Assembly (NCBI GenBank): GCA_017542065.1
Contig: JAFXXX010000019.1
Location: 59,705 to 123,704, forward strand
Direction: 5' to 3'
From: Bacilli bacterium
GTDB taxonomy: Bacteria > Bacillota_I > Bacilli_A > RF39 > UBA660
DNA: 64,000 nt
Part shown: in pieces, positions 723 to 39,459 of the stretch
Layout of the letters: every line of letters begins with the position of its first letter
Numbering within the stretch: position 1 is the first letter of the stretch
Notes under the pieces: generated by a model
The model's input: only the letters and a program-made list of their open reading frames with translations
What the model was told of the DNA's origin: nothing
Database searches by the model: none
Translations under genes and position numbers: made by a program

Positions 723-2657
723 ATGTTTAATAAAATTATAAATAATATTAACTTAACTAGAGCATCTTTATGCCTTGAAAAAATAACAACTGGTAACTAC
801 AAACAAAAGGTAAAAGCCTACGATAAATTAAAGAAAATTCCTATATCTAAGGAAATAGGATTAAGAATAATAGAAAACTCTACTAAAGTATATAGTGAAG
901 AGTTTAAAGACATGAATATTAATTCAATGTTATTACTATTATTATTTAAGAATTTTGATAAAGAATATGCAGATGAATTAAATAATATATTTGATGATTT
1001 AGATGAACAAACTAAATTAGATTTATTATCTTATTTAGCTGAATCTGATAACATTGATGCAATACTTCTTTGGAAATATTTAGTAATATATAGATTTGAT
1101 ACTGAAAGTAATAAAATACCTATTGGTAAACTAGGAGAAAATAAAGAAAACTATGATTTATTATTCCCAGATCTATATAGTGTATTTAAAACAGATAATA
1201 AGAGATATTCTTTAATAATTCTTTTAAATAGTTTTATTAATCTTGGAGTAGTTCCAATAGATGACTTAAAAAAGAATAAAAAGAATTTAATTAAACATAT
1301 AATAATGCCACTAGAAGAATTATCTAAGTTTAAATTAAATGCTAATGATAATTATATGACTAATAAAGAATATTTAGGTTTAAGATATGTAGTAGAGTGT
1401 ACATTAAATATTGAATATTACTGTAATAGTACTAAAACAAAAGCATTACTTGAAAAATTATTTAAACATAAAGATAATCAATTAAAACTATTTGTTTTAG
1501 AATCATTTATTAAAAAGAAAAAGAAAATTAAGAGTTTAAATCTTGCTCCAATAGCTAAAGATTTAAGAAGCAGATATTTATTATATAATTTACTATCATT
1601 CTATGGTGAACAAAAACTAATGCCAAAGAAATATAGTAATGAAAAAGATATATATGAATCAGAATTATATAATATTTATTCAAATACTTATAACTATGAA
1701 AAAGAACCTGAAGCTATTAAATTCTACAAGAAAGTAGAAAGAGACGGTAAGAATTATTATTTATATAAATTTAAAGCAAAAAGAGATTATAATTCTATAG
1801 TTAAAGATTTTGCTACAGACTTTATATTAAAAAATAATCATTTAGATAAATATTTAGAAAACATTGAAGAAACATATATAGGTATTGGTGGAGGTAGAGA
1901 AGATGGAGATCTTCTTACATTTAATCCTGAAATAACTAAATACTTTGATGTTTATGATAAAAAGAAAACAGTTGAAGATTATTTAGATATATTCTTTAAG
2001 AAAGCAGAAGAAGTAGAACCTACAGTAGTAGAAGAACCTACTATTATGACTCCTGAAGGAGAAGCTAGAGAAGAAAGATTATCTAAACTTAGAAAAGTAT
2101 TTAATATGAATGTATTTTATATTTTTCAATCAGCAGTTATAGTTATATTATTTATTATATTAATTTTATATATTAATGATATTAATATATTTAGATTTAA
2201 TAAAGGTAAATATAAAGTAGATAATATAACTTATAAATCAACAGAATTTGCTAAATTAACTGACTTTAATGAAATAAATGGTCATGATATATATAATGGT
2301 CAAGATGAAGTATATTATGTATTAGTATTTAAAAAGAAAGATTCTTCAGAATACTACACATTTATTAAAACTTTAATAGAAAATAATTATAAAGTATTCT
2401 ATGTAGATTTGAATAATGAAGATAATATATTCTTAAAAGAACCAAATGAAACAGGTTTAACAATATCAAAAGATAGATTTATTAAAGTTAATAATCATGA
2501 TTTTGAATTCTATGTTGATGGTAAAGAATTTATTTTAAAAGAATTAAGATCTGAAACTAATGAAGTTATTAAACAAAATACTTTAAGAAAAATAGAAGAA
2601 GAAAACAAGAAAATAGAAGAAAATGAGCAAAATGTTGAAAATACATCAAATGAGTAG
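723..2657 (+). CDS. membrane-anchored hypothetical protein (helical N-terminal part, one TM segment, C-terminal thioredoxin-like domain without CxxC)
   Basis: About 645 aa; hydrophobic segment VFYIFQSAVIVILFIILILYI; C-terminal YYVLVFK...KVFYVDL pattern. ATG at 723 follows a GGTGGTGA SD. Confidence 0.6.
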   Translation: MFNKIINNINLTRASLCLEKITTGNYKQKVKAYDKLKKIPISKEIGLRIIENSTKVYSEEFKDMNINSMLLLLLFKNFDKEYADELNNIFDDLDEQTKLDLLSYLAESDNIDAILLWKYLVIYRFDTESNKIPIGKLGENKENYDLLFPDLYSVFKTDNKRYSLIILLNSFINLGVVPIDDLKKNKKNLIKHIIMPLEELSKFKLNANDNYMTNKEYLGLRYVVECTLNIEYYCNSTKTKALLEKLFKHKDNQLKLFVLESFIKKKKKIKSLNLAPIAKDLRSRYLLYNLLSFYGEQKLMPKKYSNEKDIYESELYNIYSNTYNYEKEPEAIKFYKKVERDGKNYYLYKFKAKRDYNSIVKDFATDFILKNNHLDKYLENIEETYIGIGGGREDGDLLTFNPEITKYFDVYDKKKTVEDYLDIFFKKAEEVEPTVVEEPTIMTPEGEAREERLSKLRKVFNMNVFYIFQSAVIVILFIILILYINDINIFRFNKGKYKVDNITYKSTEFAKLTDFNEINGHDIYNGQDEVYYVLVFKKKDSSEYYTFIKTLIENNYKVFYVDLNNEDNIFLKEPNETGLTISKDRFIKVNNHDFEFYVDGKEFILKELRSETNEVIKQNTLRKIEEENKKIEENEQNVENTSNE

Positions 2658-2663
2658 TATAAT
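2635..2663 (+). promoter_or_regulatory. sigma-A promoter of the T-box/valS unit
   Basis: TTGAAA (2635-2640), 17-bp spacer, TATAAT (2658-2663). Confidence 0.8.
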
Positions 2664-2671
2664 ACACTTAA

Positions 2672-2900
2672 TGAAGCGATGAATAAGAGGAGTATATTAC
2701 TTAGTAATTATTAGAGATGAAAAGTCACTGGCTGAAAGCTTTTCTTAATAAAAGGTAATTGAAGGTAGCTTAGGAGCTTATTAATTGAACTAATAGTAAA
2801 TTAATACGTTAACTTACGTTACAGTTTTAAGGTAATAGAAATATTACGAATTAAGGTGGTACCACGACTAGATTGTCCTTTTAGATGACTAGTCTTTTTT
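2672..2900 (+). promoter_or_regulatory. T-box riboswitch, Val specifier
   Basis: Stem I with GA motif, AGAGA and GGCTGAA boxes; specifier loop GAAG-GTA-GC (GUA = Val, 2765-2767); T-box AATTAAGGTGGTACCACG (2849-2866); terminator GACTAG...CTAGTC plus T-run. Confidence 0.93.
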
Positions 2901-2917
2901 GTTTTAAGGAGGTAATT

Positions 2918-3829
2918 ATGGGTGTTGAAGATATTATTAAAAAGCATAATTATACTAAAGATATTTCAGTATTTCTAGAAAAAACATACCCTGAATTAGT
3001 AGCAAATATAGGTAATGAACAATTAATATATAATGCATTAATGGATTGTAAAATAGTTCTAACTGATAATTTATATACTTGCTTAAAAGGATATGGTTTT
3101 TTAGGAAATACAAAAGATGAAGGTTTAGTTTCTTTTGAAACACTAAAAATATGTTCAGGTGTATATCATTCAGAACCAGAAATTAAATATGAAAAAGGGC
3201 TAAATCAATATACATTAGAAGGTGTTAATAGAATAGTAGCAATTAATGCATCATCTTTAAATTTAGAGATTTATAAAGCTGCTTTAATTCATGAACTAGG
3301 GCATTTAATTAAATCATATAATAATGAATGGACTATAAAAGGTGATACAATCATTGAAAGATCTGGATTAATTACTAGAATATATCAATTACATGAAAAA
3401 AATGGAGTAGTAACTAAATCTCTATGGAGTGAAACAGGTGTTGGTTTAGAAGAAGGATTTAATGCTGTTTTAGAAGATGAAGTAACATCTAAAGTAATTG
3501 GTAAACCATATTTCTCAAACGGATATAAAGCATTAAAAGAAATAGCTAGATTAGTAATAAATTTAGTACCTGGGATACACGAAGTAATAAAAGAAGCACA
3601 AATTTATCATGATAATACAAGACTAGATAGTAAACTTGGTCAAACATTTTATGACTTACAAGAAATAACTGATACTATATATCCTATGATAGTTAAAATG
3701 TCAGATATGAATACACCTAAATATGAAAGGCATAAAATTTCTGAAAATGTTATTAAAATATTAAATGATAGATTTAAAGTAATAATTGATGAATTAAAAT
3801 CTGTAGGGCAAAGTTCTATAGAATATTAG
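2918..3829 (+). CDS. HExxH zincin-like metallopeptidase (putative), no signal peptide
   Basis: ALIHELGH motif with a downstream GLEEGFN (candidate third Zn ligand); AAGGAGG SD before ATG at 2918. Confidence 0.6.
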   Translation: MGVEDIIKKHNYTKDISVFLEKTYPELVANIGNEQLIYNALMDCKIVLTDNLYTCLKGYGFLGNTKDEGLVSFETLKICSGVYHSEPEIKYEKGLNQYTLEGVNRIVAINASSLNLEIYKAALIHELGHLIKSYNNEWTIKGDTIIERSGLITRIYQLHEKNGVVTKSLWSETGVGLEEGFNAVLEDEVTSKVIGKPYFSNGYKALKEIARLVINLVPGIHEVIKEAQIYHDNTRLDSKLGQTFYDLQEITDTIYPMIVKMSDMNTPKYERHKISENVIKILNDRFKVIIDELKSVGQSSIEY

Positions 3830-30038: not shown

Positions 30039-30836
30039 TTATAATCCAGTAACTCCTATTGTTATAGATTCTTTTTCAGATTTATATTTTTCTTTTAATA
30101 AATATAATACTTCTTCAAAATTATCTATCATAGGTTCTTTTTCTTCATTAGGTATATCTCTTCTTCTACCCATTTTTTCTAGGAAGAAATCTTTTAAAGA
30201 TTCAATTATAGCATTAAAATCTTCATTTAATACTTCATCATCAATACTATTAGCTTTATTTTGATGACCAAAGAAAGACTCACATCTTTTCATAAATCTC
30301 TCAAATGAACCTACTCCCATAATATTTTCATAAATACTTTTAATATTATTTCTATTATATAAAGCACATATTACTAAATCATTATTAAAATCAGGATTAT
30401 ATTCATTAGCAAATGCAAGTAATCCTAAATGACCAAGTTCTTCATTAATACCAGATTTATCTTCAGTATGTAAATACTTACGAATATATCTAGCATATAC
30501 AAATGGATAGAATACTTCTAAGAATATATCATCTTTTGATCCAGATGAACTAAACATTATATTAGTCATTAAATCTTCTTTAAAAACATTTAATGCATAT
30601 TCACTTCTTTCACCATAACATCTATAAAAGCAATCGTTACCCTTATGAAATAATGCACCAACATTAGTATCAATATATTCAGTAAGAGATTTTTTTACTT
30701 TTTCATATGGTATAAGTTTAACAAAATTGTCTAATGAAGAAATATCTTCATCACCATAGATAAACTTTCGCATTCCAATCATTTCTTCGATGATAGCTTC
30801 TTTTTCACTTTTTGTTTTATAAACAAAGTAATCCAT
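30039..30836 (-). CDS. hypothetical protein (ORFan), possibly a degenerate zincin-like paralogue
   Basis: 265 aa, translationally coupled to the PFOR stop; has GINEE but no HExxH. Confidence 0.6.
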   Translation of the reverse strand: MDYFVYKTKSEKEAIIEEMIGMRKFIYGDEDISSLDNFVKLIPYEKVKKSLTEYIDTNVGALFHKGNDCFYRCYGERSEYALNVFKEDLMTNIMFSSSGSKDDIFLEVFYPFVYARYIRKYLHTEDKSGINEELGHLGLLAFANEYNPDFNNDLVICALYNRNNIKSIYENIMGVGSFERFMKRCESFFGHQNKANSIDDEVLNEDFNAIIESLKDFFLEKMGRRRDIPNEEKEPMIDNFEEVLYLLKEKYKSEKESITIGVTGL

Positions 30837-33800
30837 TATTCTTCTATCACCTCTTCTTTTAGTTTGTTTTCTAAATCTAAATAGAAGTTAAATCTATCCT
30901 TAGCAGTATTAATATTATCTAGTAATAATCTTTTAGCATTCTTTGGATTAACAGATGCTATCATCTTATATCTAGTTTCATTTTTTAATACTTCTGAATA
31001 TAAACTAAAATCTACATTCTTATAATCTAGTTTAAATTCACCTTTAGATTTATCATATCTAAATATTGGATAATAACCAGATTTAACTATTAGTTTTTCT
31101 TCTTCTAAAGAGTTCTTCATACCACCTTTAATACCATGTAATATACATGGAGCATATGCAATTATTATAGATGGTCCTTTATGTTCATTTGCCTCTTTAA
31201 ATGCCTTTATAGTGCTTTCTAAATTAGCACCTAAACATACTTGAGCAATATAAACATTATCATAGTTCATAAACATTTTAGCTAAATCTTTTTTAGATGT
31301 TTTCTTACCCATAGAAGTAAACTTAGATATTGATGCTTTAGCAGATGATTTAGATGATTGACCACCGGTATTAGAATATATCTCATTATCTAATACCAAG
31401 ATATTAACATCTTTATTAGATGCTATAACATGATCTATACCACCAAAACCAATATCATAACTCCATCCATCTCCTCCGATAATCCATACACTCTTTTGAG
31501 GTATATATTCCTTTAATGGAAGTAATTCAGGAACTTCTTCATAATCTATATTATCTTTTATTATTACACTATTTTTATAATTAAATGGATCTTCTATATA
31601 TCTTCTAAATAATTCTGAATTCTTAGTAGACACTTTATCCATTTTATCTTTCATTATTCTAAGAATTTTCTTTCTGTTTACATCTTCTGCAGATCTAATA
31701 CCAAGTCCAAATTCAGCATTATCTTCGAATAATGAATTAGCCCAAGATACACTAAATGGACTAGTTGGAGAAGATCCTCCATAAATAGATGAACATCCAG
31801 TAGCATTAGCTATAACCATACCTTCTCCTACAACTTGAGTAAGTAGTTTAATATATGGTGCTTCCCCGCATCCTGCACAAGCTCCACTATATTTAAATAA
31901 TGGTTTATTATATGCTACTTGCATAGAAGAAAATTTAGGATAAATATTCTTTTTAGTTACTTTATTTATCTTTTCATTTGATCTATCTACCGCACTATTT
32001 GGCATCATAGCAATTGCTTTATTAGGACATACTGTAGAACATAGCCCACATCCTAAACAAGCATCATAATTAATTTCTAATGCATAATATAAATCTTTAC
32101 CAGGAACTCCTCTATATTTAATATTTGGATGTTCTCTAAGTTCATCTTCTGTAAGTAATTTTGGTTTAATTACTCCATGAGGACAAACAAGTGAACATTT
32201 ATTACATGAAATACATGCTGATGAATCCCAACAAGGTAAATTCTCTGCTATATTTCTTCTTTCAAATCTAGATGTATTAATATCGTATGTTCCATTATCA
32301 TGAATTAAGAATTCTGATACAGGCAAATTATCACCCTTTAAATGAAGAACAGAATTAATAATACCTTCATATTCTTTTTCTTCATATATTTTATCTGAAT
32401 CATCTATAACAATACTATTGATAGATTCAGATGCCATCATAATAGCAGCTATATTACTATTAACTATATCTTCACCTTTATTAGATAAAGATTTTTCTAC
32501 TTGTTTAATCATTACTTCTAAAGCTTTTTCATATGGATATATATTAATAATCTTCATAATAGCAGCTTCCATAATATAACTAATCTTACCAGGTATATTA
32601 TTTAATTTAGCAATCTTAGATGCATCAATAGTAAAGAATCTTACTTTCTTCTTATATATTAATGCTTTTATATTATCATCTATTTCATCAATTGTTTTAG
32701 ATGTATTAAGTATAAATATTCCATTTTCTTTTATATTAGATAACATATCATAATTATCTAAATAACTATCTTTAGAACATACTACTATATGAGGCGTTTC
32801 AATATAATAAGGACTTCTTATTTCATCTTTACCAATTCTAATAAATTCTCTTGTTACTCCTCCACTCTTATGTGAATCATATAAACCATATTCTTGAACA
32901 AATAATGGTGTATTTTCACCTACTAAAGTAACAATATTTTTAGAAGCCATATTCATACCATCAGAACCATATCCATATATAACCATTTCTATATTTGTAT
33001 TTGGAATAGGAGTATTATTCTTAGGTAAACTCTTATTAGAAACATCATCTATTATTCCTAAAACAAAATCATCTTTCATAGAAGCAGATGCCATATTATC
33101 ATAAACAGATAATATATCATTTATATTAGTATTCTTAGAAGATATTCCATATCTTCCTCCTACTACCTCTATATCAAGTTTATTATTTTTAATAATATTA
33201 TTAATATCTAAATACATAGCTTCTCTAGATGTAGTTTCTTTATATCTTTCTAGAACTGTTATTCTAGTACAATTCTTTGGAAGTACATCTAAGAAATATT
33301 TTTCAGAGAAAGGTCTAAATAAATGAACTTCTATTAAACCTAGTTTTTCTTCAGATACTTTAATAGCTTCTTTAATAGTATCACAAACAGATCCCATAGC
33401 TACTATTACTCTTTTAGCATCTTTATCTCCATAATAATTAAATGGTTTATAATCAGTTTTAAACTTCTTATTAACCTCTTTCATTTTCTTATTAACTATA
33501 TCAGGTAACTTCTCATAATATTCATTTCTAACTTCTAAATTTTGAAAATAAATATCTTCATTTTGAGTAGTTCCTTTAATTATCTTAGATGAAAGTAAAG
33601 TTTCGTTTTTAAACCTATTTATTTGGTCCATATCAACGAGTTCTTTAATTTCACTATCATCTAATAGATTCACTTTATTTAGTTCGTGAGAAGTCCTAAA
33701 ACCATCAAAGAAATTAACAAATGGAACTGAACCCTCTAATGTACTTAAATATGAAAGTAATGTCATATATTCAGTATCTTGTACTGAAGAAGAAGCCATA

Positions 33801-34216
33801 ATAGCAAAACCTGTTCCTCTTACAGCATATATATCAGAATGATCTCCAAAAATAGATAATGCATGAGTAGCAACTGTTCTAGATGCTACATTTATTACGC
33901 ATGGAAGTAATTCCCCTGCTATTTTATACATTTCTGGAATCATTAGTAATAAACCTTGTGATGATGTATAAGTACTTGATAGTGATCCAGATAAAAGCGA
34001 TCCATGTATTAAAGCAGCAGCACCCGCTTCACTTTGCATTTCAACTAATTTTACTTTATTATCAAATATATTTAATCTTCCATCTATAGCCCATTTTTCA
34101 ATTAATTCAGGCATTTTAGAAGAAGGAGTTATTGGATATATACCTGCTACTTCTGTAAATAAATAAGATATATAAGCACAAGCATTATTTCCATCAATTA
34201 CTTTATATTGACTCAT
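30836..34216 (-). CDS. nifJ: pyruvate:ferredoxin (flavodoxin) oxidoreductase
   Basis: YPITPS, EMQSEAGA, FFDGFRTSHE, two CxxCxxCxxxCP clusters, GACAGCGE and GGDGW.YDIG motifs. Confidence 0.96.
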   Translation of the reverse strand: MSQYKVIDGNNACAYISYLFTEVAGIYPITPSSKMPELIEKWAIDGRLNIFDNKVKLVEMQSEAGAAALIHGSLLSGSLSSTYTSSQGLLLMIPEMYKIAGELLPCVINVASRTVATHALSIFGDHSDIYAVRGTGFAIMASSSVQDTEYMTLLSYLSTLEGSVPFVNFFDGFRTSHELNKVNLLDDSEIKELVDMDQINRFKNETLLSSKIIKGTTQNEDIYFQNLEVRNEYYEKLPDIVNKKMKEVNKKFKTDYKPFNYYGDKDAKRVIVAMGSVCDTIKEAIKVSEEKLGLIEVHLFRPFSEKYFLDVLPKNCTRITVLERYKETTSREAMYLDINNIIKNNKLDIEVVGGRYGISSKNTNINDILSVYDNMASASMKDDFVLGIIDDVSNKSLPKNNTPIPNTNIEMVIYGYGSDGMNMASKNIVTLVGENTPLFVQEYGLYDSHKSGGVTREFIRIGKDEIRSPYYIETPHIVVCSKDSYLDNYDMLSNIKENGIFILNTSKTIDEIDDNIKALIYKKKVRFFTIDASKIAKLNNIPGKISYIMEAAIMKIINIYPYEKALEVMIKQVEKSLSNKGEDIVNSNIAAIMMASESINSIVIDDSDKIYEEKEYEGIINSVLHLKGDNLPVSEFLIHDNGTYDINTSRFERRNIAENLPCWDSSACISCNKCSLVCPHGVIKPKLLTEDELREHPNIKYRGVPGKDLYYALEINYDACLGCGLCSTVCPNKAIAMMPNSAVDRSNEKINKVTKKNIYPKFSSMQVAYNKPLFKYSGACAGCGEAPYIKLLTQVVGEGMVIANATGCSSIYGGSSPTSPFSVSWANSLFEDNAEFGLGIRSAEDVNRKKILRIMKDKMDKVSTKNSELFRRYIEDPFNYKNSVIIKDNIDYEEVPELLPLKEYIPQKSVWIIGGDGWSYDIGFGGIDHVIASNKDVNILVLDNEIYSNTGGQSSKSSAKASISKFTSMGKKTSKKDLAKMFMNYDNVYIAQVCLGANLESTIKAFKEANEHKGPSIIIAYAPCILHGIKGGMKNSLEEEKLIVKSGYYPIFRYDKSKGEFKLDYKNVDFSLYSEVLKNETRYKMIASVNPKNAKRLLLDNINTAKDRFNFYLDLENKLKEEVIEE

Positions 34217-34273
34217 CACTATCACCTACTATAATTATAACAAAAAAATAACTAGTTTTACTAGTTATTTTAT

Positions 34274-35437
34274 TTAAAACTTTGGCGCAGATCTAATTAT
34301 TTCAAATCTATATTTAATAATAATATTCATTGCATCATCTATATATTCATCAATTTGTTCTTCAGGCATACCTTCAATTCTTTTTACAGTTCTTAAAACT
34401 TCAGGTAATATATTAATTATTTCAGAAAATTTTAAGTTGTCAGTATCTAAACTATCTATATTAATATCTTCAGAATATTCAACTTCTTCATCTGTAGGAT
34501 ACTTTTCTAACGTATCTATAATTTCATTTGGAAAATATTTTTTATATTCTCTTGCAGGTACTAAGAAGAAGTTATATGAAACAGTTCTAGGTAATTCTTT
34601 TATAACTTTAACATCATCATCTAATCTAGAGCCATAATATTTCTTACCATCTTTAGTCTCAGTTAAATACATATCTTGAGAAGAATCCCAAGTTGGATCA
34701 AATATGTATAATCCATTAATATTATATTTTTTATCATTTACTTGAACCAAAGGTCTTACATGATTAAACTCATTATCTTCATCATCTTCTTGTACAGACA
34801 TAATAGCAGACTCAATACCCATTTCTCTAAGTAATTCGCAAAACATATATGTATATCCCGCACATACTATATTACTAGTAGAAAATACTTTAGCTATATT
34901 TCTAGAACTTAATGAATGACTATCTTCCTCATCCCATTGATATTCAAAAAACTTAACATGATCATAAGCAAGAGTTATCTTTTCCAACTCTGACATTCCT
35001 TCAGTAGGATAAGTTTCTAAAAAAGTATTAAAGAATTCTCTCATATCTAAAAATTCATCTACAGAACAAAATCCTGGCATTCCTTTAATTCTAACAAGAA
35101 TACTATCATATTTATTTAAATTTTCTAAACCAGGATAATTCTTATTATCTAGTTCTACTATTATTCTTTTATAATTTGAAGGTTCATTATCTTCTATTTC
35201 TTTTTCAATATCGTTAGTAGTTTTATCATTAGCCTTTATAATAAGACTATCAGACGATATATAGTAAGAAGTTAAATACCAAAAATCATCATCTTTTGCA
35301 GCATCAAATAGTTCTTCAACATCCTCTATACTATCAAAATTTATTCCAGGAGGACGTTTTTCCACAAAAGTTTTATAATCTGGATAATGACTAAATAATT
35401 TTCTTAACTCTTCTAATATTTCATCATTAAGCTTCAT
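34274..35437 (-). CDS. transglutaminase-like (Cys-His-Asp) domain protein, no signal peptide
   Basis: EKITLAYDHVK, IVCAGYT..FCELLREMGI, NHVR and FDPTWDS motifs. Confidence 0.78.
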   Translation of the reverse strand: MKLNDEILEELRKLFSHYPDYKTFVEKRPPGINFDSIEDVEELFDAAKDDDFWYLTSYYISSDSLIIKANDKTTNDIEKEIEDNEPSNYKRIIVELDNKNYPGLENLNKYDSILVRIKGMPGFCSVDEFLDMREFFNTFLETYPTEGMSELEKITLAYDHVKFFEYQWDEEDSHSLSSRNIAKVFSTSNIVCAGYTYMFCELLREMGIESAIMSVQEDDEDNEFNHVRPLVQVNDKKYNINGLYIFDPTWDSSQDMYLTETKDGKKYYGSRLDDDVKVIKELPRTVSYNFFLVPAREYKKYFPNEIIDTLEKYPTDEEVEYSEDINIDSLDTDNLKFSEIINILPEVLRTVKRIEGMPEEQIDEYIDDAMNIIIKYRFEIIRSAPKF

Positions 35438-35516
35438 ATACTTCACCTAATATAATTATATATTATTTTTATTAGTTTTAAAATAAAAAAAAAGAATGTC
35501 AAAGAAAAATGAGCAA

Positions 35517-37337
35517 TTATTTTTGCTCATTTCTTATTCTTGCATCATATTTTTTTCTTTCTTCAGTATTAAGAATCTTCTTTCTTAATCTAAAGTTAAT
35601 TGGTGTAATTTCTACAAGTTCATCACCATTAATATATTCAAGTGCAGCTTCTAAAGATAATTGTTTTGGTCTTTTTAAAACTACAGTATGATCTTTACCT
35701 GCACTTCTTGTATTAGTTAAGTTCTTACCTTTAACAACGTTAACAGCAAGGTCAGCATCTTTATTAGCTTCTCCTACTATCATACCTTCATATACTTCTG
35801 CACCAGGTTCTACAAACATTACACCTCTATCTTCTAATTGACCTAAAGCGTAAGCTGTACAAGCACCATTTTCCATAGAAACAAGAACACCAAGTTTTCT
35901 TTCTCCAACTTGTGCTACTTGTTTTGGTAAATATTCTTTAAATGTATGATTTAAGATACCAAATCCCTTAGTCATTGTCATGAAGTCTGTTGTGAAACCA
36001 ATTAAACCTCTAGATGGAACAGTATAAGTTAACTTAACTACTCCAGGTAAATTAGTCATAGTTTCCATTGTACCACCTCTAAGGCCTAAAGCTTCAATAA
36101 TAGATCCTACAGTATCTTCTGGACATTCAATAGAAACATCTTCATATGGTTCACATTCAACACCATCAATTTCTTTAATAATAACTTCAGGTTTAGATAC
36201 TTCAAGTTCGAAACCTTCTCTTCTCATATTTTCAATTAAAATAGATAAGTGAAGTTCTCCTCTACCTGAAACAATAAAACTTTCTTGATCGTTATCTCTA
36301 ATTTTTAGTGAAACATCAGATTCTGCTTGTTTATATAATCTTTCTCTAATTTTAGTAGCAGTTACAAATTTACCTTCTTTACCTACAAATGGTGATGAAT
36401 TAACACCAAATGTCATTTGTAAAGTTGGTTCATCTATTCTAAGTTTTGGAAGAGCCTCTTCATGACCTTCAGCACATATAGTTTCTCCAACTTCTATGTC
36501 AGCAAGTCCTGCAATAGCAATAACATCACCAGCATGAGCTTCTTCAACTTCTAATCTTTTTAATCCATAATAACTAAATAGTTTTTGAATTCTAAATTTC
36601 TTAATAGAACCATCTAGTCTTACACAAGAAACCATTTCATTTACTTTAACAGATCCTCTATTAATAGTACCAATACCAATTCTTCCTACATAGTCATTAT
36701 AATCTAATAAAGCAGGTTGGAATCTAAATGCACCTTCTTCTACTTTTGGAGCAGGTACTTCATTAACTATTAAATCAAATATTGGATCCATAGTTTTTTC
36801 TTGAGTAGATAAATCTGGACTTAATGAACAAGTTCCATTAATAGCAGATGCATAAACTGTTTTGAAATCTAGTTGTTCATCAGATGCACCTAATTCCATT
36901 AATAATTCTAAAACTTCTTCTACTACTTCGTTAATTCTTGAAGTTGGTTTATCAACTTTATTTACTACTACTATAATTTTTAAATTAGCTTCTAATGCTT
37001 TTTTAAGTACGAATTTTGTTTGAGGCATAACACCTTCATAAGCATCAACAAGTAATATAGCACCATCAACCATGTGCATAATTCTTTCAACTTCTCCACC
37101 AAAATCAGCATGTCCAGGAGTATCTAAGATATTAATTTTATAATCTTTATACTTAACAGAAGTAGGTTTAGCTAAAATAGTAATACCTCTTTCTCTTTCA
37201 ATATCATTAGAATCCATTGCTCTTTCAGCTACTACTTCATTTTCCCTAAATGTATTAGATTCTTTTAATAATCCGTCTACTAAAGTAGTTTTACCATGGT
37301 CTACGTGTGCAATAATTGCTACGTTTCTAATTTCCAT
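35517..37337 (-). CDS. typA: translational GTPase TypA/BipA
   Basis: RNVAIIAHVDHGKTTLVD, DTPGHADFGGEVER and GRGELHLSILIENMRREG motifs. Confidence 0.98.
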   Translation of the reverse strand: MEIRNVAIIAHVDHGKTTLVDGLLKESNTFRENEVVAERAMDSNDIERERGITILAKPTSVKYKDYKINILDTPGHADFGGEVERIMHMVDGAILLVDAYEGVMPQTKFVLKKALEANLKIIVVVNKVDKPTSRINEVVEEVLELLMELGASDEQLDFKTVYASAINGTCSLSPDLSTQEKTMDPIFDLIVNEVPAPKVEEGAFRFQPALLDYNDYVGRIGIGTINRGSVKVNEMVSCVRLDGSIKKFRIQKLFSYYGLKRLEVEEAHAGDVIAIAGLADIEVGETICAEGHEEALPKLRIDEPTLQMTFGVNSSPFVGKEGKFVTATKIRERLYKQAESDVSLKIRDNDQESFIVSGRGELHLSILIENMRREGFELEVSKPEVIIKEIDGVECEPYEDVSIECPEDTVGSIIEALGLRGGTMETMTNLPGVVKLTYTVPSRGLIGFTTDFMTMTKGFGILNHTFKEYLPKQVAQVGERKLGVLVSMENGACTAYALGQLEDRGVMFVEPGAEVYEGMIVGEANKDADLAVNVVKGKNLTNTRSAGKDHTVVLKRPKQLSLEAALEYINGDELVEITPINFRLRKKILNTEERKKYDARIRNEQK

Positions 37338-37418
37338 ATACTCATCCCCTTTTTGGAAAGCCTAAGATATTATAACACTTATTTAAGATTTTGCAAATAA
37401 AAAAAGAAGTAAAACTTC

Positions 37419-37937
37419 TTATTTTTTAAATATATTTATTACTTTTCCAACTCTTTCTGTTATTGCTTTAGAATTCTTAATAGCAATAGTTTTACCAAGT
37501 GCTTTAGTAGTAATAGTTAAAGATGCAATTATTGATGTAACTAGTAACACTAATAATGATGGATTAATCTTTACTTTATCTACTAAAGAAGCTGCTACCA
37601 TCATACCAGCAGAACCACTAACTACTCCGCATACATCACCTACTACGTCATTACAAATAGAGGCTAATTTATCAGAGTTTTTAATAAGTTTAACTGAATG
37701 ACTAGATCCCTTTATTTTCTTTGATGCCATTGAATTAAATGGTGTCTCATCTTGTGCTGTAATAGCTACTCCAATCATATCAAATATCATACTAATAAAT
37801 ATAAATAATACTATTATTAATATACCAAAATATACATTTATTTTAGGTATAACTCCTTCTGATAATAAACTCATTCCCATTGATAATGCAAATGATAAAA
37901 ATAGAACTGTTATTAACCAACCAAATTGTTTTTTCAT
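37419..37937 (-). CDS. oapA: OLE-associated protein A (OapA; CNNM/DUF21-related membrane protein)
   Basis: About 172 aa with 4 hydrophobic helices; FDMIGVA...PFNSMASKK.G and ICNDVVGDVCGVVSG (DxxGD) motifs; OLE RNA about 1 kb upstream on the same strand. Confidence 0.88.
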   Translation of the reverse strand: MKKQFGWLITVLFLSFALSMGMSLLSEGVIPKINVYFGILIIVLFIFISMIFDMIGVAITAQDETPFNSMASKKIKGSSHSVKLIKNSDKLASICNDVVGDVCGVVSGSAGMMVAASLVDKVKINPSLLVLLVTSIIASLTITTKALGKTIAIKNSKAITERVGKVINIFKK

Positions 37938-37982
37938 ATTTCTCACCTAATATAATTATATCATAAAAAAATAAGAATAATA

Positions 37983-38813
37983 TTAATTCTTATTTTTAAG
38001 TGTATATGCATAATCAGCAATACTTATAGGAGCATTATTAGTTAAATTCTCATTACCTATAGGAAATTGATTCTTTTTGTTTGCTTCATTTTCAACATAA
38101 CTTAAGAAAGTCCCACTAAACATATTAAATCCTTTAGGATAATATCTAGATTTCTTTTCTAAACTAGTAAACGAAAAATAGTTTAATCCTAAGTAATCCA
38201 TAATTTTTCTACTATTAGTATAATATGATACATTATGTCCTTCTCTTGGATATTTAGGCATTGAATCAGTATATCCAACTAAATTATTTGTAGTTTTAAA
38301 ATAAAAAATAGGATTAGTATGGTTTACTTTGCCTGTATCAATAGGATAATCTAGATTAGGATCTAATATAGAATAAGCTCCATTAATACCATATTTTCTA
38401 AGACATTTATCTATATTTTCTTCGCCGTTTTTAAGTAAATAATAAAGTAATAAAATAGGATTATTTCTTACTTTATTTCTATCTTCCTCATTATCAATTA
38501 CATCTTCAATTATTCCGGATTTTAACACTCTTTGTTCATCTAGAATACCAGCTAAATAGTATTCTTTTATTTGCATACCATTTTCATCTTCATAATATAC
38601 ATAACTTGGAAAGTTTTTATCTTCATTTGAAACTATTTGACCCATAAAGAAACTTTGTGTTCCTGTAGTTAAATCATCTTTTCTATATTTCATTTCATGG
38701 ATTTCTACAACTCTTACAATTTCTTTTTCAGAGTCTATAACCATTCTTTGAAGAGCATTAATTAGTTTATCACTATCATAATTACCTTCTGCTACTAATA
38801 ATATTTTGTTCAT
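37983..38813 (-). CDS. hypothetical protein (ORFan) inserted between ole and oapA
   Basis: ATG at 38813 follows GAGGTG; own TG.TATAAT promoter and own terminator (about 37965-37997). Confidence 0.75.
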   Translation of the reverse strand: MNKILLVAEGNYDSDKLINALQRMVIDSEKEIVRVVEIHEMKYRKDDLTTGTQSFFMGQIVSNEDKNFPSYVYYEDENGMQIKEYYLAGILDEQRVLKSGIIEDVIDNEEDRNKVRNNPILLLYYLLKNGEENIDKCLRKYGINGAYSILDPNLDYPIDTGKVNHTNPIFYFKTTNNLVGYTDSMPKYPREGHNVSYYTNSRKIMDYLGLNYFSFTSLEKKSRYYPKGFNMFSGTFLSYVENEANKKNQFPIGNENLTNNAPISIADYAYTLKNKN

Positions 38814-38867
38814 AGTACACCTCTTAAACAATTGAAAACTATTATATCATACTAAATATTTAAAAAC

Positions 38868-38900
38868 AAAAAAAATCATCTTTTATAAGATGATTTATTT
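38868..38900 (-). terminator. rho-independent terminator after the OLE RNA
   Basis: 10-bp stem AAATCATCTT/AAGATGATTT with a U-tract on the minus strand. Confidence 0.75.
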
Positions 38901-38910
38901 CATAAAAAAA

Positions 38911-39424
38911 TATGACTGGTACTATCACAATTAACTTTGCGCCATAGGTCAAGTAGAAGTTTCTCATATTTAAACCTTTCGTTACCAAAAGGCGGTTCCC
39001 CTTTACTTAAATATATATACCGTCACCTAAGTATACGACTTGATTACCACTTAGTACGCACTGCAAACTCATGATAGTATACAGCCTAGGAGATTTCCTC
39101 CCTGATATTATTCTATTATTAGTCTTTTTTGCAAATACAGTTTCATATAAGATATAAATACCTAAATACTTTGGCCATTAATATATAGATATTCCTATAA
39201 TTCCCATATATTCACTCAAGATTAGCAATTATTATTTTGTCATGTGTTAAATGGGTAGAGTCTTATATGCCATTATAAGATTCCCATAAAACTACTTTTA
39301 TATAAACACCCAGCTTTGGGCAAGCCAAGCAATCTATACAAAGTGTACTTGTATGCTATTTAACGAATTTTTAGGCTCGTCTTCATAATAGATGTATCAA
39401 CTAGGATACTGCACCCTTCATACG
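38911..39424 (-). ncRNA. ole: OLE RNA (ornate large extremophilic RNA), compact variant of about 510 nt
   Basis: The minus strand carries OLE hallmark segments in order: GUGCAGUAUCCUAGU, UGAAGACGAGCCUAAAAAUUCGUU, AAUGGCAU, CUUGAGUGA, UUUGCAAAA, GAGGAAAUCUCCUAGGCUG, ACUAAGUGGUAAUC, AAAGGGGAACCGCC and CUACUUGACCUAUGGCGCAA. The 5' GUAUGA pairs with the 3' UCAUAU. The region has no ORF and oapA lies downstream. Confidence 0.92.
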
Positions 39425-39430
39425 AGAAAA

Positions 39431-39459
39431 ATTATAGCATATTTACGTAAAATAGTCAA
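39431..39459 (-). promoter_or_regulatory. sigma-A promoter of ole
   Basis: TTGACT, 17-bp spacer ending in TGC, TATAAT on the minus strand. Confidence 0.8.

Follow-up and report, generated by a model that had tools for sequence, protein, structure and literature searches.

We examined a 64,000-nucleotide (nt) stretch of contig JAFXXX010000019.1 (hereafter the window) from a Bacilli bacterium, in which the gene for OLE RNA (ole) and the gene for its membrane protein partner (oapA) are separated by an open reading frame (ORF) that we call orfX. OLE RNA is among the largest bacterial non-coding RNAs. Its biochemical role is unsettled, and gene neighborhoods are the main source of clues. The original prediction offered two explanations for orfX: a new partner or regulator of the OLE ribonucleoprotein (RNP), or a passenger insertion. 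The passenger half held up, through an empty insertion site, a narrow spread and other cargo at the same position in relatives, and we found no positive evidence for the partner half. orfX is probably a passenger accessory cassette in an ordinary OLE/OapA locus of a small-genome, AT-rich, RF39-type gut bacterium, and is not among the conserved components of the OLE RNP. The locus thus departs only modestly from the known arrangement, and its extra gene adds a small new protein family whose fold is known.

The host genome is a 0.9-Mb assembly (81% complete) and the G+C content of the window is 25.5%. The genes ole, orfX and oapA and their associated signals are all encoded on the minus strand. 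In the direction of transcription, the features of the locus are:

39431–39459, minus strand: promoter-like site of ole, TTGACT-17 nt-TATAAT with TG (11/12 matches), ending at the first base of the OLE match.
38900–39433, minus strand: OLE RNA gene of the short "variant 2" type (RF01071 in a covariance-model scan; 244.2 bits, E 8.6e-68, model positions 1–616, not truncated).
38873–38896, with a T-run to 38868, minus strand: terminator-like hairpin 3′ of ole with a 10-bp stem, a 4-nt loop and a run of eight T (−11.5 kcal/mol for 38862–38905, z −4.4; 0/200 shuffles as stable).
38841–38849, minus strand: extended −10 box TGATATAAT before orfX, from a motif scan; it lacks a good −35 and is not listed by a two-hexamer scan.
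37983–38813, minus strand: orfX, an ORF for a 276-aa soluble protein, with its ATG at 38813 and its stop at 37983–37985, preceded by AAGAGGTG.
37967–37997, minus strand: second terminator-like hairpin, a 12-bp A/T-rich stem over the orfX stop followed by a run of seven T (−8.3 kcal/mol, z −4.1).
37955–37963, minus strand: extended −10 box TGATATAAT before oapA, from the motif scan, also lacking a good −35.
37419–37937, minus strand: oapA, with its ATG at 37937, for a 172-aa membrane protein, the OLE RNA partner (Pfam CNNM, PF01595).

The empty site is seen in G010, the closest relative without orfX (OapA 88% identical), in which the order is ole, hairpin, TGTTATAAT, oapA. The alignment of G010 to the window runs as far as the T-run and continues from about 30 nt ahead of the oapA start codon, leaving approximately 899 nt that are extra in the window. 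An identical 17 nt, the T-run plus TGTTATAAT, is found at both junctions in the orfX-bearing relative G006, and 11 nt in the window; this is a direct repeat, as might be expected of a mobile cassette, and is at the same time simply the T-run plus the −10 box. An alternative in-frame TTG start for orfX at 38831, which would add MFKRCT before Met1, was rejected, as G006 has a stop codon in this stretch and the added codons are the ribosome-binding site (RBS).

The spread of orfX is narrow. Scans of genomes and metagenome contigs for further copies yielded the genomes G006 and G002 and the metagenome contig L032. orfX is present in 3/61 relatives and, by a family-profile search, in three of the 14 genomes of the genus (G000, G006, and G002). 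A family sample of 401 genomes from 214 genera contains it in two (G000 and G006), both of the window's genus. The contig of G002 starts inside the 3′ end of OLE, so the order there is ole, orfX, oapA as well. On L032 the order is tkt, yneF, OLE, orfX (57% identical), a 214-aa ORF, oapA, typA. Database-wide, the family amounts to seven proteins among 5.8 billion and to 10 clusters among 1.84 billion representatives; none is longer than 290 aa, and there are thus no fused forms. In the synteny comparison proposed with the original prediction, ole directly adjoins oapA and orfX is absent in 6/10 OLE-bearing genomes of the genus. A seventh (G009) has an unrelated gene in the gap.

The predicted signals that flank orfX are older than its presence at the locus. 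In the first sample of 61 relatives, 26 OLE loci were brought into the same orientation and searched for oapA, which lies 5–212 nt past OLE in 22/26. A perfect hairpin followed by a T-run is found at the 3′ end of OLE in 15/26 loci, including 9/10 of the window's genus, and within the genus it is also found where oapA directly trails ole. The stem sequences vary among species of the genus and the position is kept. Similarly, a TGnTATAAT box sits just before the RBS of the next gene in 9/10 genus loci, at a fixed spacing. The hairpin 3′ of ole is shared by G010, G006, and G002, the second hairpin has a conserved counterpart in G006 and G002, and an equivalent box (TGTTATAAT) precedes oapA in G010, G001, G007, and G013, all of which lack orfX. 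Because 9/10 genus loci carry the hairpin and 9/10 the box, including loci without orfX, the separate signals predicted for ole and oapA are ancestral to the genus and do not stem from orfX. In three other genomes of the genus (G004, G005, and G008; 85, 95, and 59% complete) neither OLE nor OapA was found, and some members of the genus may have lost the system.

The original prediction had located the individual signals well. It placed a terminator of ole at 38868–38900, where the predicted hairpin and T-run are present; it described a soluble ORF of about 276 aa with its own TG.TATAAT and terminator, which are orfX, the box at 38841–38849 and the hairpin at 37967–37997; and the third promoter it gave to oapA (−10 at 37955–37960) is exact. 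Its headline, that ole is uncoupled from oapA by a terminator and an ORF, is misleading, since a hairpin after ole is normal in 9/10 loci of the genus, as is the box.

Further predicted signals follow oapA:

37404–37420, minus strand: weak hairpin and T-run behind oapA (−6.4 kcal/mol for 37395–37430, z −2.3).
37369–37397, minus strand: promoter-like site of typA/bipA (10/12 matches with TG), with TGTTATAAT at 37369–37377.

The promoters and terminators at this locus are reasonable predictions. Four of the 28 TGNTATAAT matches in the window follow one another directly before typA, oapA, orfX, and ole. A different explanation is that there is no real uncoupling: the hairpins would be leaky or inactive, a single ole-orfX-oapA transcript would run from the strong ole promoter with OLE cut out of it, and the boxes would be there by chance. 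Several observations are in keeping with this. Both hairpins are A/T-rich, with U-runs of 8 and 7 and only 1–2 G-C pairs, and fail a generic terminator scan; the ole hairpin was missed because its stem holds two G-C pairs and the scan requires at least three. Neither box has a good −35. In this genome of 25% G+C, the number of TGNTATAAT matches in the window exceeds expectation only 1.7-fold (28 vs. 16.9), although 1/100 shuffles reaches 28. In 11/26 family loci there is no hairpin at all and the oapA match starts 5–77 nt past OLE, so that co-transcription is compatible with function. On the other side, the position of the hairpin is conserved while its stem sequence changes, which argues for selection on structure. 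Both hairpins fold better than at least 199/200 shuffles, and the box keeps its fixed distance to the oapA RBS in 9/10 genus loci. We consider a single leaky transcript unlikely.

Apart from orfX, the locus is a typical OLE/oapA locus. The OLE match is far above the gathering score of RF01071 (50), and in its alignment two mid-model stretches of 44 and 36 model positions are reduced to nine and five bases. Variant 2 OLE RNAs, found in bacteria of the RF39 clade, have bit scores of 235–310 and have lost stems P7 and P8 in the description given by Fernando and Breaker (PMC11332333). At 244.2 bits the window's OLE lies inside this band and has the properties of variant 2, with the deleted mid-model region equated as a whole, rather than stem by stem, with P7/P8 as that paper describes them. 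The product of oapA matches PF01595 at 31.7 bits (cut-off 28.4; match span 43–174), and its DxxxD motif (D97 and D101) is invariant in 26 orthologues. This motif is distinctive of OapA in the same description (PMC11332333). Orthology is clear, with 88–98% identity to the OapA of relatives, including G010 in which oapA adjoins ole, and OapA orthologues are found behind ole across the family. Upstream of ole are tkt and a UPF0154 (yneF-like) gene, and downstream of oapA is typA/bipA.

Compared with the OLE/oapA locus as known from RF01071, OapA of Halalkalibacterium halodurans and variant 2 OLE (PMC11332333), the window has in common a full-length OLE match, a CNNM-like OapA with DxxxD, the order ole then oapA on one strand, and, as far as the published description of variant 2 goes, the bit score and the absent middle stems. 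It differs by the extra gene and by the gap: oapA starts 962 nt past OLE with orfX in between, and so is not immediately downstream of ole, whereas 90/96 family loci have a gap of at most 258 nt. It also differs in having a predicted −10 box and hairpin for each gene, an arrangement common to members of the genus without orfX.

The spacing survey from which these figures come used one genome per genus across the family (151 genomes, OLE in 100). Of the OLE matches, 96 have an OapA match on the same contig, always on the same strand; the spacing is at most 258 nt in 90 and at least 834 nt in the other six. oapA is on another contig in three further genomes and was not found with this profile in one. 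Two genomes with OLE and their sole OapA match on separate contigs, G101 (OLE on C1, OapA on C4, in an assembly of about six contigs) and G117 (C8 and C2), are probably cases in which ole and oapA are truly unlinked. A second, partial OLE match was seen in G072. The genes found in the ole-oapA gap are:

G009 (same genus): an unrelated 270-aa membrane-anchored ORF.
L032, 3852–4496, plus strand: a 214-aa ORF with an N-terminal membrane anchor and without a Pfam family, in addition to orfX.
G020: two antisense genes, with oapA 1443 nt downstream of OLE.
G082: an acyltransferase-3-like membrane protein (22.3 bits, below the Pfam cut-off of 31).
G105 (L038, 568–3047, minus strand): a UbiA-family prenyltransferase (72.9 bits) and a 559-aa multi-pass membrane protein.
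G140: a 215-aa ORF.

Separation of ole and oapA is thus uncommon but recurrent, with different predicted cargo each time. The possibility that the 270-aa ORF of G009 or the 214-aa ORF of L032 is a diverged orfX, or that the two are kin of each other, was rejected (BLASTP E 0.56 and 1.3). Several of the inserted genes encode membrane or envelope proteins (G105 and G082). In G020 (L017), antisense genes for similar-looking proteins of 310 and 326 aa (497–1429 and 2472–3452, both minus strand) border OLE, one on either side. Both proteins start with MY.WN and the second has an HELGH motif. No Pfam family was found for the two G020 genes downstream of OLE that were tested.

These comparisons bear directly on whether orfX could be a lineage-specific accessory subunit or regulator of a reduced OLE RNP, for example by linking OLE/OapA to a small-molecule signal. 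The RF39 and TANB77 clades largely lack OapB and OapC, and complexes there may have fewer partners (PMC11332333). A local protein could then take on such a role. All four orfX copies with known context (G000, G006, G002, and L032) are found directly behind ole and ahead of oapA, in the same orientation, with none found elsewhere, and orfX is under purifying selection relative to its closest copy (the ratio of non-synonymous to synonymous divergence, dN/dS, is 0.21). Nevertheless, six of the 10 OLE-bearing genomes of the genus do without orfX and a seventh has an unrelated gene in its place. orfX was not found outside the genus in the 401-genome sample, though OLE is present in 100 of the 151 genomes searched. 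OapA is 95–98% identical where orfX is only 36–57% identical, which is unexpected for a subunit that has to fit a conserved RNA and a conserved protein; OLE, like OapA, stays constant as orfX diverges. Unrelated genes occupy the same gap elsewhere. The unbroken link between ole and orfX is explained equally well by one insertion followed by descent as by a functional tie. A role of orfX as a subunit or regulator is therefore quite unlikely. A complex prediction of orfX with two copies of OapA scored 0.00 in both runs, which counts neither way.

The sequence of orfX gave no hint of its family. There was no Pfam match (0 families at E up to 1), including GATase_2/4/6/7, and no PHROG match at E 0.01 or better (best E 0.028). 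PADLOC gave no consistent match, as six families were each hit by 1/18 members, which we treated as noise. A sequence-profile search of the PDB had unrelated proteins as its best matches (E 0.4) and no amidotransferase at E up to 10. The structure was more informative. An AlphaFold2 model built from 18 sequences reached a predicted local distance difference test (pLDDT) score of 84 and a predicted template modeling (pTM) score of 0.85. It supersedes an earlier model from nine close sequences (pLDDT 57.8), the Foldseek matches of which were weak and already to amidotransferases. In an exhaustive structural comparison, the top 13 of 48,161 chains are class-II amidotransferase domains (Z 9.2–13.9): AsnB, TsnB9, PurF, GlmS, GFAT, EgtC, beta-lactam and carbapenam synthetases, two stand-alone proteins, and glutamate synthase. 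The next chain is a proteasome subunit at Z 5.1. Foldseek searches of the PDB and of viral models were concordant, and the viral matches include stand-alone phage proteins of 235–340 aa. Structure prediction with Foldseek had been suggested in the original prediction and gave a class-II amidotransferase fold. By this model, orfX, which would be a cytoplasmic protein, has the four-layer alpha-beta-beta-alpha N-terminal nucleophile (Ntn) fold of class-II glutamine amidotransferases.

Residues 3–251 of orfX share this fold with the class-II domains of AsnB (1ct9), TsnB9 (7ylz), PurF (8w7d), GlmS (1xff/4amv), EgtC (4zfj), and the stand-alone proteins 1te5 and 3mdn, with a root-mean-square deviation of 3.5–4.3 Å over 164–197 aligned residues. 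The size of orfX is like that of the stand-alone members (218–253 aa). It differs from the class-II domains in its sequence, being only 6–12% identical in the structural alignments, and in having no attached synthetase domain.

Class-II amidotransferases use a catalytic Cys1, exposed by removal of Met, together with an Asn-Gly oxyanion hole and an Arg and an Asp that hold the glutamine, as in GlmS and PurF. The structural alignments start at residue 3 of orfX against Cys1 of the enzymes (Cys2 where Met is numbered). The N-terminus of the orfX family reads M-N-K/R-I: 12 diverse sequences all have K or R at residue 3 and, apart from one with D, N at residue 2. Cys, Ser and Thr are not conserved at residues 2–3, and one member has S at residue 2. 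orfX thus lacks the N-terminal catalytic Cys of a class-II glutamine amidotransferase. G89 is invariant, but the residue that precedes it is A, S, V or F, and the alignment suggests that the oxyanion-hole Asn is missing. Because Lys or Arg stands at the position of Cys1 with two residues ahead of it, orfX would most likely not be a glutaminase but a non-catalytic binding protein or pseudo-enzyme, or a protein with other chemistry. It holds the fold, but is no member of the enzyme family. There is precedent for a non-catalytic version of the fold. Beta-lactam synthetase (1jgt) and carbapenam synthetase (1q15), which orfX matches at Z 10.3 and 9.2, have N-terminal domains of the class-II fold that have lost Cys1 and glutaminase activity. 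In both enzymes an active synthetase domain is fused to this domain, whereas orfX stands alone. One could picture orfX as a strain-variable accessory factor of the minimal OLE RNP of RF39-type bacteria, a dead amidotransferase-fold protein that binds a small amide or amino-acid ligand, signals to OLE RNA or OapA in place of OapB/OapC, and is retained between ole and oapA for that reason. We hold this to be very improbable.

orfX is a real gene because dN/dS against the closest copy (G006) is 0.21; by sequence comparison it is also diverging far faster than its flanks, for which the ratio in the same comparison is 0.07–0.12. Against L032, orfX has dN 0.29, dS 0.51 and dN/dS 0.57 (flanks dN 0.005–0.07, dS 0.14–0.42), and against G002 it has dN 0.55, dS 0.87 and dN/dS 0.63 (flanks dN 0.005–0.01, dS 0.12–0.15). 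G002 is listed as a different species, yet its OapA and TypA (98 and 99.5% identical) are closer to those of the window than G006's are, and its orfX is only 36–40% identical. In a BLASTN of G002 against the range 35517–38813, 95% identity resumes about 40 nt before the orfX stop, which therefore would place a breakpoint inside orfX. Either a recombination breakpoint within the gene or mixing in the G002 assembly (71% complete, 3% contamination) could account for this pattern. The divergence of orfX is in keeping with very rapid change in situ, or with recombination in the conserved flanks that exchanged old alleles. Its composition is that of the host (G+C 25.0%; 11% at third codon positions, GC3).

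Divergence of this kind would also be expected of a phage-derived or conflict gene (defense, counter-defense, or exclusion) under diversifying selection, which is a specific form of the passenger explanation. Alleles of orfX diverge far more than the flanks do, dN/dS is 0.57–0.63 between distant alleles, and a seemingly single, narrow lineage holds at least 10 clusters at 50% identity. In the ESM-Atlas, the closest clusters consist of viral hypothetical proteins of 263–340 aa (score 0.91–0.92, a lead only), and stand-alone phage proteins with a class-II amidotransferase domain (235–340 aa) are among the best viral fold matches. Against a conflict gene, there is no sequence relative in 50,697 phage records or in IMG/VR contigs, the PHROG and PADLOC searches described above were negative at their thresholds, there are no prophage genes around orfX, and its composition equals that of the host. 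A conflict gene is unlikely on balance.

A history consistent with the passenger explanation can be outlined. In this genus ole, oapA, and typA each seem to be their own transcription unit, with TGnTATAAT before and an A/T-rich hairpin and U-run after. The short stretch that separates the ole hairpin from the oapA −10 box would be a permissive landing site. One sub-lineage (G000, G006, G002, and L032) would have taken up a cassette of about 0.9 kb, composed of orfX, a second hairpin, and a second T-run/−10 box. The insertion need not disturb the OLE-OapA system, because oapA would keep its own predicted promoter. Alleles of orfX may since have been swapped by recombination through the conserved flanks, making the gene strain-variable, as are genes in conflict with phages or competitors.

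Several points weigh against the passenger explanation. No recombinase or other mobility gene was found among the neighbors of orfX in the window. The original prediction had named orfX at unrelated loci as a sign of a passenger, and this was not seen; all four copies of known context are behind ole, in a family that also has seven more distant clusters (P0008–P0014). dS is unreliable at a GC3 near 10% and cannot separate allele swapping from change in place. The loss of catalysis is read from the starts of alignment ranges and from the sequence alignment rather than from a residue-level superposition. The promoters and terminators are predictions. RNA-library evidence comes from Logan contigs of four runs; six runs contained only 5–8% of the sampled words. 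Short contigs cover OLE in three runs (X15, X18, and X20), and one 205-nt contig (X17) matches orfX at 204/205 positions, with DNA carry-over possible. No RNA-library contig spans ole-orfX or orfX-oapA, and the parts not covered carry no weight.

Elsewhere in the window, a T-box leader was found at 2670–2883 on the plus strand (RF00230 in an Rfam scan, 108.4 bits vs. a gathering score of 93). A 390-aa ORF at 34274–35446 on the minus strand, between typA and a 1129-aa ORF, has a weak match to the transglutaminase core (20.7 bits vs. a cut-off of 23). From its translation, the 1129-aa ORF (30836–34225) is a putative pyruvate:ferredoxin oxidoreductase.

Genes between ole and oapA, or a spacer with a hairpin and promoter, are not described for RF39 relatives in the passages found in OLE papers of the Breaker laboratory; such genes may be listed in the supplements of PMC11332333 or in a 2023 neighborhood survey (730 species) to which PMC12265935 refers. 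In these small-genome gut relatives, ole and oapA look like separate units, and the spacer between them repeatedly takes in foreign genes. Therefore, genes adjacent to ole in such genomes should not be taken as OLE partners without checking relatives. The 90 closely spaced loci among the 96 linked pairs provide a baseline, for one family, for arguments from gene neighborhood. orfX itself represents a tiny, fast-diverging family that was placed by structure prediction only, and may be of interest for the study of pseudo-enzymes and of strain-variable genes in rumen and gut bacteria.

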